Origin: Escherichia phage vB_EcoM-UFV13
Sequence record: NC_031103.1
Length of the DNA: 64,000 bases
Strand: one strand, 5' to 3'
A program made the position numbers and the translations under genes. A model generated the notes under the pieces. That model saw only the letters and a program-made list of their open reading frames with translations. It was not told where the DNA came from and ran no database searches. Shown here piece by piece: positions 17,168 through 21,940 of this stretch; within the stretch, counting starts at the first letter, position 1; the number at the start of each line of letters is the position of its first letter.

Positions 17168-17200
17168 ATGGGGACCGAAAGGTCCCCATATTTTTATTTA
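17168..17200 (+). terminator. hairpin terminator after gene 54
   Basis: GGGGACC-GAAA-GGTCCCC followed by ATATTTTTATTT. Confidence 0.75.
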
Positions 17201-17484
17201 CGGAATGAAATAAAAGCAGCAACTGAAGCAACTAAACTGTCTTCAATATAAACTTCAATTTTTACCGGAGCTTCTGACTCAAATTTACCTGTTACTACAC
17301 CTTGAAAAATACTTTCAGTCTGTTCTGGCTTTGAAAAATTTTCAGAAGGAAAAATTCCGAACTTTTTATCCGTTCCAAAAATTTTGATAAATTCATCGTA
17401 AACTGCTTCATTAAAAGCATTATCAGCAGGAATAACGCCTTCAACTACAAGTTCTTGACCTAAAAAGCGCAAAGAAGATTTCAT
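17194..17484 (-). CDS. hypothetical protein downstream of the alt genes
   Basis: 96 aa ORF preceded by early promoter-like element and GAGGA Shine-Dalgarno. Confidence 0.65.
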   Translation of the reverse strand: MKSSLRFLGQELVVEGVIPADNAFNEAVYDEFIKIFGTDKKFGIFPSENFSKPEQTESIFQGVVTGKFESEAPVKIEVYIEDSLVASVAAFISFRK

Positions 17485-17495
17485 TTTGTGTTCCT

Positions 17496-17550
17496 CATGT
17501 TATGTCAGTAAGACTACTATAACACAACATAAGGAACTTGTAAACTACAT
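17496..17550 (-). promoter_or_regulatory. early promoter-like element plus leader (copy 1 of a duplicated element)
   Basis: Minus strand GTTTAC, 17-nt spacer, TATAGT-like -10, then GAGGA; near-identical to 32486..32541. Confidence 0.6.
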
Positions 17551-19602
17551 TTTGAACTTTTTAGACATTCCGTTGATGTTAACCAAAGAAGCTAAGATTT
17601 GAGAAACTTCGTTTTCCTCTTCTTTTGATTCTTCTACAAGGAATTGATTAAATCCAGTCATTGGACGAACTTCACCAGTTTCCATCAGATGGTCGCCATC
17701 ATATACTGATTCTTCTAATTGTTCAGAAGGAGGAACGATTGTACCTTCGATTAGATACTTGTTATAAGCAGTTTCTTTCATAAAGTAAGTACTTACTTTA
17801 TTAATCTTCAGTAAAATTCCACGCGGTAGAATAACTTCAGCTTCTGATGGAAATCCTGATAAATGACCTGGAACGATAACTTTGATTCGCTCAGCTCCTT
17901 TAATTACCATACCCACGCTAGTTTCAGCATCTTCATTAGCATATGTAGAATGACTACCCATATGCATTAAATCTTCGGCATCAACGGAACCTTCTCCTTC
18001 ACCAGAAAATACTGCGCCGGAATCATCTAGAGCCATATAGTTTTTACCATGCTCACCGAAGATATTTGGTTTAAGCGATGTGGATACGAAGTTCTTGAAA
18101 TAGAACATTTTATTTTCAATGTTATGACGCAAAGTTTTAAAGGTAACTTCTTGTCCACGGTAAAGTGTAGTTCCTGGAGGAAGAACTGATCCTTTGGCAA
18201 AGGCAGAATCCAACGTCTCGATGTGCTTAATAGCTCGTTCCATGTATTCTTCACGGGTAGAATCTGGTTTACCCAAAAGGAACGAGTTCATTTCAACATA
18301 TGAATCTGCACAATAATCTTCAATTACATCAGATTCAGCTTGGGTTAGTCCTTTTGGAGTTACTTCGGTGCTTGCGTATTCATATGCCTGAGCAGCAGAT
18401 TCATTAATCAATTTATAAATGCCATTCATTACAAATTGAATAATAGCTGTCTTTTCATCTGGTGTAGCTTTAGAACCTTTAACTAAATCATTGATAATTT
18501 TCTTAATAACATCAAAGCTATTAGAAATATTAATGTCAGCAAGATCACTTAAAATTTTATCAGTTTTATAATCAAAGAATTCTTTATTCTTTAAATATTC
18601 TTGAGAACCTTGATATGTTATATCGCTCTGCAGCTTGATAGATGGATCGCGTAAACGTGCATGGGCCAATGCAATATGATTTCGGAAGCTTTCTAGTTCA
18701 TAATCGTTAGATTTAAAACGAGAAGCACTTCTCATACCACCGATAGCTCCTTTGCTGAAGTTTGAACCAATCTGAATAACGCCAGAGTTCATTGGTCCTT
18801 CTGCTTTATATACCGGAACCTTAGATTCAAACTCTTGATATTTCTTAGCAGCGAAGCTATCACCCTGAAGTGAAGCGTCAACAGTAGAATATTGAGCTTG
18901 TGCTGCTAATCGACGACTAATTTTAGTTTTCTGAATAACAGCTTGGTCAGTACGTTTATCATTTTCTAAAGCAATAGAAGCAGCAACAGCGACAGCTTTA
19001 GGAACAGCATTACCTGTTTTAACGTCTACATAAACATCACCAACCTTTGATTCAACTTTTGTGAATAACTCAGTTGAAATAGGAGGTACACCTGGAATGT
19101 CTTCTAAATTGGCATTTTTACGGTAAACCATAATATATGCATATTTCTTATCATAGTCCCAGATTTCCTTTAAGAGAACATATCGACCTGCTCCTTTAGT
19201 ACGTACTAAACGGTCAGCAATAACTTGCATTTGACGAGCAGCGCCATTTGTTTTACTTTTTAGTACGCGGAATAGGCATGCATCAATTTTATACTGCTTC
19301 ATTGTTTGAAGAGCAGTATCAAAAACAGCATTAATGACACCAATTGGATTTCCACCCAAGTTTCTAAGCTTAACCAGCGATAATTTCTCGTTGACACCTA
19401 TCATTACGATATGCATCATTTTATCGCCTGGCTTAACGTTTTTATTTGTATCACCGCCAGAGGTGTATGTACAAAATCTAAATCCAGGAAGCACACTTTC
19501 TTCACCGGCTTGAATAGCAAAAATTTGAGGTATTTTATGCTTAGGATTTAAGTTAACAACCGGCGCCGAAGCGCCGTCAAATAATTCTGTAATAAGTTCC
19601 AT
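17545..19602 (-). CDS. Alt-family ADP-ribosyltransferase paralogue (second copy)
   Basis: 685 aa; N-terminus MELITELFD and blocks LCTYTSGGDTN, KQYKIDAC, GRYVLLKEIWDYDKKYAY shared with the adjacent Alt; ART R-S-E motifs (LYRGQ, FVSTSL, EAEVILPRG). Confidence 0.85.
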   Translation of the reverse strand: MELITELFDGASAPVVNLNPKHKIPQIFAIQAGEESVLPGFRFCTYTSGGDTNKNVKPGDKMMHIVMIGVNEKLSLVKLRNLGGNPIGVINAVFDTALQTMKQYKIDACLFRVLKSKTNGAARQMQVIADRLVRTKGAGRYVLLKEIWDYDKKYAYIMVYRKNANLEDIPGVPPISTELFTKVESKVGDVYVDVKTGNAVPKAVAVAASIALENDKRTDQAVIQKTKISRRLAAQAQYSTVDASLQGDSFAAKKYQEFESKVPVYKAEGPMNSGVIQIGSNFSKGAIGGMRSASRFKSNDYELESFRNHIALAHARLRDPSIKLQSDITYQGSQEYLKNKEFFDYKTDKILSDLADINISNSFDVIKKIINDLVKGSKATPDEKTAIIQFVMNGIYKLINESAAQAYEYASTEVTPKGLTQAESDVIEDYCADSYVEMNSFLLGKPDSTREEYMERAIKHIETLDSAFAKGSVLPPGTTLYRGQEVTFKTLRHNIENKMFYFKNFVSTSLKPNIFGEHGKNYMALDDSGAVFSGEGEGSVDAEDLMHMGSHSTYANEDAETSVGMVIKGAERIKVIVPGHLSGFPSEAEVILPRGILLKINKVSTYFMKETAYNKYLIEGTIVPPSEQLEESVYDGDHLMETGEVRPMTGFNQFLVEESKEEENEVSQILASLVNINGMSKKFKM

Positions 19603-19605
19603 GAT

Positions 19606-21702
19606 TTATCCTTGAACGAACTTGTAAGGCATGTTTGTAATATCTATGCAAGACGCAATAATTCCAAGAGATGATTCTACTTTCTGTTTAACATTTGATG
19701 AAACAAATGATGCAAAGTCAACTCTGTCTTCTACTTCAATATCACCTGTCATTGCAACTACTTCACCGGTTTCCATTAAATGGTCTCCGTCATAGATTAC
19801 CGATTCGGTGAGCTCTTCCGTAGTCATAACTTCAGCTTGAATGAGTTTTGTATTATTAGATGTTGTTCCGTCATTATTAGAAGCATCAGTTATTTTATTA
19901 ACTTTGACCATCAATCCGCGCGGTAGAATAACTTCAGCTTCTGTTGCTATTCCGAGACTTCCTGGATATACAACATTAACTTTATGAGCTCCATCAATTG
20001 CCCATCCTATTTGAACTTTAACGTATTCAGGATTTTCTTTATACGCTCTTATTTCGTTTGGATTAATAGTTATTCCTTCTTCATTTTTATCAACTGTTAA
20101 TTCATTGCGAGCTTCTGGTTCTAAAAGACCAATACCAGCATGTGTAATTCCAAAACGTCCAAAAATGATAGGAGTTAAAGAAGTAGATACAAAATTTCTG
20201 AAATAGAACACTTTATTTTTAACTAGTGCTTCGTATATAGGAGCAGTCATACTTTGAGCACGATAAACTGTAATGCCTTCCGGTATGCGGTCACCATTTT
20301 CAAAAGCTGAATCTAAATTATTTATAGCAGATTCAATTTCTTTTTCACTCATTACATCATATCGTTCTGGATTGTAACGACCTAAAAGAAGATTATTAAT
20401 GTCTGTATATCCTGAACCACAATATTCTCTAATACCTCGCTTTTGTGATGGAGTATATTTAGAACCATCACGGGCGATAGTAATATCAATCATTGGACCA
20501 GCGCCAATTCCGGAAAAGCTATAAATCATTCGTTTGAGGAATTTAGTTTTTGCCGCATTCCAGGCATTTTTAGTTATTTCTCCCCAGACTTCATCTGACT
20601 GCCCTTTACGAGTTTTATTATGTTTATCAAGCCAATTATCTTTGTATTCTTCAAAGAATTTATTAACAGCTGCTGCGTATTTCTCTAAACATTTTATTGA
20701 AGTAGTTGGTTCATTTTTGATTGCGTTAAAAATTACATCTTTAATTTTTTCTGAAACTTCATCAACCTCACTTTTTGAAAAGAATTTATAGTCATAGTGA
20801 AGTTCATTCGCAGTTCCTTCGGCAATAATTTTTGCTGCCTTAGTTTTAGAAGCTAATGAATTAATTCCAAGCTTCATTTCTTCTGCTTCGGGAATTAAAG
20901 GAGCGGTAGCAGGTTTATTGAAATTAGCTGCGGTAGATTCATACTTCTGGAATAATTCACTTTCAAATCTAGAAGATTCCAATGATTGACTTTGCGCAAT
21001 TGCTCTACGGGAAATTTTAACTTTAACGATTACAGCTTGGTCAGAACGCTTATCATTTTCTTGCGCAATAGATGCTGCAATTGCCTCATTTTTAGTTACT
21101 TGGGCTCCAGTATCTTTATTGATATAAACATCACCGACCTTCGATTCAACTTTAGTAAAGAGCTCGGTACTAATTTCCGGAACTCCTGGAATGTCTTCTA
21201 GCGATACATTTTTGCGATGTATAAGAATATATGCATACTTTTTATCGTAATCCCAGAGTTCCTTAAGAAGGACGTATCTGCCACCTGAACGACTACGGAT
21301 AAGTCTATCAGCAATAACTTGAATTTGTCGAGCTTGACCAGCAGTTTTAGACTTAAGAATACGAAGCATACAAGCATCAATTTTATATTGACGCATAGTT
21401 TGCATTGCAACAGTAAAAACTGAATTGATATAATTAATTGGGCTTGGACCAAGACCTTTTAATTTAGCAATTGAACCTTTAGCAGTTAATGTAAAAGGAA
21501 CAATATGCATCATTTTATCGCCCATCTTTAAATCGCGATTAGTATCACCTCCAGATGTATAGGTACATAAACGAAAGCCTGGTTGTTCAATTGCATCATC
21601 AACATGAACTGAAAAAATTTGTGGTATTTTCTTCTTTGGATTTAAGTTTGTAATCGGAAGAGTAGTATCTTCGTCAAATAATTCTGTAATAAGTTCCATC
21701 AT
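19606..21702 (-). CDS. alt: Alt ADP-ribosyltransferase (packaged, modifies host RNA polymerase)
   Basis: 698 aa matching recalled T4 Alt sequence; ART motifs VYRAQ, FVSTSL, EAEVILPRG; late promoter motif upstream. Confidence 0.9.
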   Translation of the reverse strand: MMELITELFDEDTTLPITNLNPKKKIPQIFSVHVDDAIEQPGFRLCTYTSGGDTNRDLKMGDKMMHIVPFTLTAKGSIAKLKGLGPSPINYINSVFTVAMQTMRQYKIDACMLRILKSKTAGQARQIQVIADRLIRSRSGGRYVLLKELWDYDKKYAYILIHRKNVSLEDIPGVPEISTELFTKVESKVGDVYINKDTGAQVTKNEAIAASIAQENDKRSDQAVIVKVKISRRAIAQSQSLESSRFESELFQKYESTAANFNKPATAPLIPEAEEMKLGINSLASKTKAAKIIAEGTANELHYDYKFFSKSEVDEVSEKIKDVIFNAIKNEPTTSIKCLEKYAAAVNKFFEEYKDNWLDKHNKTRKGQSDEVWGEITKNAWNAAKTKFLKRMIYSFSGIGAGPMIDITIARDGSKYTPSQKRGIREYCGSGYTDINNLLLGRYNPERYDVMSEKEIESAINNLDSAFENGDRIPEGITVYRAQSMTAPIYEALVKNKVFYFRNFVSTSLTPIIFGRFGITHAGIGLLEPEARNELTVDKNEEGITINPNEIRAYKENPEYVKVQIGWAIDGAHKVNVVYPGSLGIATEAEVILPRGLMVKVNKITDASNNDGTTSNNTKLIQAEVMTTEELTESVIYDGDHLMETGEVVAMTGDIEVEDRVDFASFVSSNVKQKVESSLGIIASCIDITNMPYKFVQG

Positions 21703-21735: not shown

Positions 21736-21753
21736 AAAGGCCCGAAGGCCTTT
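21736..21753 (-). other. UUCG hairpin at the 3' end of the 62-aa ORF
   Basis: Minus strand AAAGGCC-UUCG-GGCCUUU. Confidence 0.55.
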
Positions 21754-21940
21754 AGTAATCTAGTGGTAAGAGAGTACGATATATTTCAAACTTTGGTCCT
21801 TTTTCATAGGCATCAAATGTTTCTGTAAATTTATTATAAGCGTATGCATCTACAAATTCGAGAATGACTTGTGATACAGAAGTAGAAACATCTCCACCTT
21901 CTTTTTGAGCAATGACAATTGTTTCTAAGTAAGCTTTCAT
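21752..21940 (-). CDS. hypothetical small protein between gene 30 and alt
   Basis: 62 aa ORF overlapping the 3' end of gene 30 by 4 nt. Confidence 0.6.
   Translation of the reverse strand: MKAYLETIVIAQKEGGDVSTSVSQVILEFVDAYAYNKFTETFDAYEKGPKFEIYRTLLPLDY

Follow-up and report, generated by a model that had tools for sequence, protein, structure and literature searches.

Two tandem Alt-type ADP-ribosyltransferase genes in Escherichia phage vB_EcoM-UFV13, the second an intact and conserved gene that T4 has largely lost

We analysed a 64,000-nt stretch (here, the window) of the genome of Escherichia phage vB_EcoM-UFV13 (NC_031103.1), a segment of a T4-like (Tequatrovirus) genome in which two adjacent minus-strand genes encode proteins of the Alt family of ADP-ribosyltransferases, enzymes of a type that T4 injects into its host. 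One, of 698 aa, is alt; the other, of 685 aa, lies directly downstream, is intact, and corresponds to the gene annotated in other phages as alt.-2, Alt2 or AltB. We refer to this gene as alt.-2 and to its product as Alt2. T-even phages commonly have the tandem pair of alt and intact alt.-2, an arrangement that is ancestral to the group. What Alt2 is, and that it is whole, we observe directly; its packaging, its activity and its targets we infer. On balance, we find it likely that Alt2 is a second arginine ADP-ribosyltransferase that is made late, packaged in the head, processed by the prohead protease gp21 and injected, and that its targets differ from those of Alt. The features on which the analysis relies are collected in Table 1.

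By sequence, there is no doubt that the two long ORFs are paralogues: BLASTP aligns them over 718 columns at 42% identity (479 bits, E=5e-165). Both match PF03496 (ADPrib_exo_Tox) above its gathering cut-off of 23.4 bits, the 685-aa protein with 71.9 bits (5.8e-20) and the 698-aa protein with 128.7 bits (2.2e-37). Both also belong to PHROG 802, "Alt-like RNA polymerase ADP-ribosyltransferase", which covers residues 1-685 of Alt2 at 1.9e-256. NCBIfam has no model for either window protein, and a sequence search of solved structures with Alt2 gives no match at E<=0.01. Alt2 is collinear with T4 Alt (gpAlt, NP_049811), N-terminal domain included, at 41% identity over residues 1-683. The two proteins agree in length and in domain order (N-terminal domain, helical central domain, ADP-ribosyltransferase (ART) domain and C-terminal propeptide), in the R-S-ExE residues, in having gp21 motifs at both ends and a late-promoter match, and in their slot between gene 30/alt.1 and alt.-3/gene 54. 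In sequence they differ: identity is 41-42% overall, falls to 9-12% for the central domain and is about 36% for the ART domain. The initial annotation, made from the letters of the window, had described two adjacent minus-strand Alt-family ORFs of 685 and 698 aa, and coordinates, BLASTP and PF03496 all agree with it. The four motifs that it quoted (YR.Q, FVSTSL, EAEVILPRG and DGDHLMETGEV) are present in both proteins. It had also asked whether the 685-aa ORF might lack a functional catalytic triad; the R-S-ExE set is complete in both window proteins, and a family alignment of 67 sequences has R482, S507, E587 and E589 of Alt2 among its invariant columns. In T4 Alt the ExE glutamate is essential, as the E577A mutant is inactive (PMC11404850); this residue appears to be numbered one off and to be E576 in the 682-aa T4 Alt sequence. 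By analogy, the ExE motif predicts arginine as the acceptor for Alt2.

The C3/VIP2-type ART fold is found in both Alt copies, for Alt2 in an AlphaFold2 model (pLDDT 83.6, pTM 0.75). The model begins with an N-terminal alpha/beta domain (residues ~1-195); linker helices lead to a central domain made up of helices only (~250-415), and the ART domain follows (~421-622). In a Foldseek search, the modelled ART domain of Alt2 matches Vis, C3bot, VIP2, CDTa and Certhrax with E-values of 4.5e-7 to 1e-4 and target-normalised TM-scores of about 0.6. The C3, VIP2, iota, CDTa and Vis toxins have the ART fold and the R-S-ExE arrangement in common with Alt2, but they are toxins that bacteria secrete, their delivery domains are of other kinds, and their sequence identity to it is below 20%. 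As a separate observation, residues 1-415 of the Alt2 model (window 18358-19602) give weak N-domain-like matches (E 1e-4 to 1e-2) among predicted viral structures. The proteins concerned are large, uncharacterised and encoded by phages that are unrelated (Dickeya RC-2014, Erwinia phiEa2809, the Vibrio phages VP-1 and Kuja, and Agrobacterium Atu_ph07), and two more such matches carry a zeta-toxin or deaminase domain annotation. Judging from these modelled structures, the Alt N-terminal domain may serve as a module that is reused to load proteins into the virion.

The tandem pair is already known and annotated, and within the genus it is the usual state, from which T4 departs. Along its whole length, the 4.9-kb region has 97-98% identity to T2, T6, RB3, RB27, RB32, RB33 and many others, and at least 80% of it is covered in 339 records. 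Some 400 phage records, T2 and T6 among them, have the 685-aa protein at >=90% identity. The rarity of the second copy implied by the initial annotation does not hold, as the gene is intact in T2, T6, RB3, RB27 and RB32. The alternative it had allowed for, that T4 and its close relatives all carry both copies, is half right: the relatives do and T4 does not. In RB32 the 685-aa gene is labelled alt.-2 with the note "similar to alt", in the BASEL phages the pair is called "Alt" and "Alt2", and in the Dhakavirus IME08 a tandem pair in the same slot is called altA and altB. RB32 alt.-2 (YP_803136), BASEL Alt2 (bas44_0032, bas43_0032) and the unnamed second Alt of T2 and T6 are the same gene as the one in the window, at 98-99.9% protein identity and with equal position and length, so that the window holds another allele of it. 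A 2006 comparison listed T4 alt.-1 and alt.-2 together with RB49 and 44RR ORFs as apparent paralogous duplications of alt, and another 44RR ORF as an apparent full-length duplication (PMC1524935). A 2026 paper describes a pair of Alt-like paralogues that are 43% identical, in phages 6phi13 and SHFML-11, and suggests that the range of targets is expanded (PMC13600099), a remark and a conjecture that match those of the initial annotation. We found no functional or experimental study in the literature searched for alt.-2, altA/altB and Alt2. The record of Staphylococcus phage SAJK-IND (MG010123.1, 31877-32172) ends in a 296-bp piece with 94% identity to the 3' end of alt.-2, probably a contamination or chimeric assembly.

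The divergence between Alt and Alt2 is modular. Region by region, the two window proteins are 66% (N-terminal domain), 12% (central domain), 33% (ART domain) and 45% (propeptide) identical; conservation between the paralogues extends to the first and the last of these regions and not to the central and ART domains. Over residues 1-240 the identity is 66-68%, and the N-terminal third, first described as near-identical, is similar only. The central regions do differ, as had been proposed, and that of Alt2 is unrelated in sequence to Alt's, in keeping with the diverged paralogue that the initial annotation had suspected. Many members of the wider family match only in the N-terminal and ART stretches, and the central segment is therefore the hypervariable part. 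Comparison with IME08 extends this pattern to another genus. Alt2 and AltB are 44% identical in the central domain, 58% in the ART domain and 65% in the propeptide, and window Alt and AltA are 64%, 95% and 52% identical in the same three regions. In the N-terminal domain the identity is 67-68% within one phage versus 46% between orthologues. The payload, that is, the central and ART domains, clusters by paralogue type across genera, as does the propeptide, and the N-terminal domain clusters by phage genome. Since the synonymous divergence (dS) of the N-terminal domain is saturated in all comparisons (1.5-3.2 between paralogues), an old gene conversion and a shared head-specific constraint are inseparable as sources of the within-genome likeness. 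We also considered a recent gene conversion, which the same saturation makes impossible to demonstrate. For the T2-type alt of the window, the ART part (19800-20440) is 95% identical in protein to that of IME08 altA with a dS of only 0.33, next to N-terminal domains that are only 46% identical. The low dS points to a relatively recent exchange of the catalytic part between genera. The ADP-ribosylating turn-turn (ARTT) loop reads GFPSEAE in Alt2, GIATEAE in window Alt and APSNEME in T4 Alt, with an aromatic residue in Alt2 where Alt has an aliphatic one. We count at least three payload types at the alt locus.

These differences bear on whether Alt2 merely backs up Alt, acting on an identical set of host proteins (RNA polymerase alpha and others) and adding dose and not specificity. 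Such a role would suit the common architecture, catalytic motifs and arginine-type ExE of the two proteins, as well as the loss of the gene from T4 without a known defect. We consider it improbable given how little identity is left in the central (12%) and ART (33-36%) domains, the different ARTT loops, and payload lineages that stay separate across Tequatrovirus and Dhakavirus, with AltB nearer Alt2 and AltA nearer Alt. In addition, function varies even among Alt alleles: T4 Alt counters the Mokosh type I defence and the Alt of BASEL phage Bas37 does not (bioRxiv 10.1101/2025.11.20.689424, a paper that mentions no paralogue), so that variation in the Alt family is functionally consequential. 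A different target for the second copy, as originally suggested, is plausible.

The 698-aa gene was at first taken for a match of T4 Alt. Overall it is 70% identical to T4 Alt (N-terminal domain 99%, central domain 30%, ART domain 62%, propeptide 93%), and these regional values make it the T2-type allele and not the T4 allele. T2-type Alt at >=90% identity is found in about 315 records; in about 211 records the best match to window Alt has only 60-80% identity, the band that holds T4-type Alt. The ORF opens with two consecutive ATG codons (21699-21702). The true start is probably the second, at 21699, giving a protein of 697 aa that begins MELITE, because the RB32 annotation agrees and because six residues are known to be removed from T4 Alt.

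Expression and processing signals suggest that Alt2 is made and handled together with Alt. A match to the T4 late-promoter consensus, TATAAATA, precedes alt, with a terminator-like hairpin (21754-21735) just before it. We looked for a terminator between alt and alt.-2 and found none, and an AAGGA Shine-Dalgarno sequence for alt.-2 lies inside the 3' end of alt. This TATAAATA probably drives both genes, which are likely to be co-transcribed late. A second occurrence of TATAAATA within alt (20326-20319) is probably due to chance; it falls in codons for AINNLDS, where T4 Alt has AIDNLDS. In T4, about 40 copies of Alt are packaged per head, and gp21 cuts the protein after ITE-6 and LTE-619 with loss of 63 C-terminal residues (PMC5694885, PMC9026906). 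Both window proteins have gp21 motifs at the positions used in T4 Alt, by motif presence. The same rule applied to T4 Alt returns 68.2 kDa, the published mature mass, and it predicts a mature Alt2 of residues 7-631 (69.2 kDa) and a mature Alt of 70.1 kDa. The Alt2 model is low-confidence or disordered at residues 630-659, as expected of an exposed cleavage site. The DGDHLMETGEV motif, initially listed as catalytic, comes after the C-terminal gp21 site (LTE-619 in T4 Alt, PMC5694885) and belongs to the cleaved propeptide, not to the catalytic core. If Alt2 were instead an active ADP-ribosyltransferase that stays unpackaged and acts late in the producing cell, late expression would fit equally, and packaging is itself only inferred. 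We give this a small chance, as Alt2 retains the ITE-6 propeptide, the N-terminal domain, the LxE site and the C-terminal propeptide, all as in the packaged and processed T4 Alt (PMC5694885), and all under purifying selection.

T4 itself keeps remnants of the second gene. Between alt and gene 54 it has only the small ORFs alt.-1 (61 aa), alt.-2 (67 aa) and alt.-3, as the initial annotation had stated. T4 alt.-1 is 95% identical to residues 1-56 of the 685-aa protein and T4 alt.-2 is 96% identical to residues 62-116, compared with only 58-62% to Alt itself, so that the two (NP_049810 and NP_049809; PHROGs 23015 and 15247) are fragments of an Alt2-type gene and not a partial copy of T4 alt. By sequence comparison, the lesion in T4 is a frame-shifting deletion of 1,699 bp between two 9-bp direct repeats, CTAAAAAGT, of which T4 retains a single copy exactly at the junction. 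Codons 117 to ~680 are removed. In addition, one A is missing from the A5 run at codons 55-56, and this breaks the remnant up into two ORFs. With a query centred on the junction, 91 of the 484 records that match show the T4-type deletion; the window keeps both repeat copies and is without the junction. Phage ECML-134 (NC_025449, 2501-4561) has one alt gene between alt.-3 and alt.1, a hybrid in which the first ~455 nt are alt-like and the remainder is alt.-2 at 97-100%. Its sequence suggests that the pair collapsed by recombination between the tandem copies; evidently, such copies do recombine.

Where it is intact, alt.-2 is conserved. Pairwise comparisons of five orthologues give ratios of non-synonymous to synonymous divergence (dN/dS) of 0.019-0.057; any one pair shows 42-99 synonymous differences and 3-19 non-synonymous ones. 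Taken separately, the N-terminal, central, ART and C-terminal segments all have ratios of 0.03-0.06. Every region of the gene is under strong purifying selection. The marks of a pseudogene, a disrupted frame and relaxed selection, are both absent from the window gene, whose 685 codons form an uninterrupted frame with a dN/dS of 0.02-0.06. That the 685-aa ORF is a functionless, decaying duplicate on its way to the pseudogene seen in T4, as the deleted and frameshifted remnant in T4 and 90 other records and the collapsed pair of ECML-134 might suggest, is contradicted by this selection analysis, and very improbable also in view of an ORF intact in about 400 records, invariant catalytic residues and an orthologue in another genus.

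For an Alt2 that is packaged and injected, we propose the following course. Like T4 Alt, Alt2 would be made late. It would be placed in the prohead core by means of the shared N-terminal domain and propeptides, and gp21 would trim it after E6 and E631. Alt2 would then be ejected with the DNA into the host, where it would ADP-ribosylate arginines of host proteins. These targets would differ from those of Alt, with the central helical domain and the ARTT loop of Alt2 as their determinants. A role in counter-defence or host takeover is plausible. Several points weigh against this proposal. The late promoter and the protease sites of alt and alt.-2 are consensus matches only. The N-terminal likeness within a genome could come from old gene conversion instead of a packaging constraint. 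The central domain of Alt2 is without a recognisable relative, and no target can be deduced. The literature searched gave no direct evidence of Alt2 in virions, cleaved, injected or enzymatically active, and no virion proteome mentioning a second Alt copy. Finally, T4 and 90 other records live without alt.-2, which is thus dispensable, at least on laboratory hosts. Taken together, we see about an even chance for the full proposal, in which Alt2 is injected with the phage DNA to act on host targets unlike Alt's, possibly including a defence system, and the alt locus is modular.

The surrounding genes are those of a T4-like genome. Genes 29, 48 and 54 are on the plus strand, and the minus strand carries, in order, alt.-3, the 685-aa ORF, the 698-aa ORF, alt.1 and the DNA ligase gene 30. 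The alt.1 product matches Pfam PF24647 'Phage blade protein' at 1.9e-29. Upstream of alt.-3 there is a match to an early-type T4 promoter of its own (GTTTAC, 17 nt, TATAGT; 17544-17516); in T4, mutants with C-terminal extensions of Alt.-3 escape the CmdTAC defence (PMC11618068). Between the convergent genes 54 and alt.-3 lies a GC-rich hairpin with a perfect 9-bp stem (17168-17189), which scores as a terminator on both strands.

Table 1. Features of the alt region in the window; a slash within a motif marks the predicted gp21 cut.
Feature	Position	Strand	Details
alt.-3	17194-17484	minus	96 aa, Pfam DUF5498; just downstream of alt.-2
alt.-2 (intact; also annotated Alt2 or AltB)	17545-19602	minus	685 aa
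alt, T2-type allele	19606-21702	minus	698 aa from first ATG
alt.1	21752-21940	minus	62 aa
T4 late-promoter consensus TATAAATA	21730-21723	minus	~20 nt upstream of alt start; sequence match
alt/alt.-2 junction	19603-19615	minus	alt TAA, 3 nt, alt.-2 ATG
Catalytic residues, alt.-2	R482, S507-T-S509, E587-A-E589		
Catalytic residues, alt	R481, S506-T-S508, E588-A-E590		698-aa numbering
gp21 motifs, alt.-2	I4-T-E6; L629-E630-E631		MELITE/LFD, SEQLEE/SVYDGD
gp21 motifs, alt	ITE residues 5-7; L631-T-E633		MELITE/LFD, EELTE/SVIYDGD; 698-aa numbering
Hypervariable all-helical central domain, alt.-2	18882-18358	minus	residues 241-415
Predicted C-terminal propeptide, alt.-2	17709-17548	minus	residues 632-685; contains YDGDHLMETGEV; acidic, pI 4.6
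Upstream 9-bp direct repeat CTAAAAAGT	19263-19255	minus	codons 114-116 of alt.-2; 5' breakpoint of T4 deletion
Downstream 9-bp direct repeat CTAAAAAGT	17564-17556	minus	codons 680-683, different frame; 3' breakpoint of T4 deletion

As a discovery the pair carries little weight, as it is annotated in hundreds of genomes, named, and remarked on in print. If our reading of Alt2 as an injected enzyme with its own targets is true, the textbook set of T-even injected effectors lacks one, the model phage T4 having deleted it, and the alt locus would be modular, with a head-matched N-terminal domain and propeptide that carry an exchangeable central-plus-ART payload. T4 is atypical at the alt locus: in most T-even phages there is a further Alt-type enzyme that is conserved and apparently functional. 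Because Alt variants differ in the defences that they overcome, Alt2 is a reasonable candidate explanation where T2, T4, T6 and therapeutic T-even phages differ in host range or in their sensitivity to defences.

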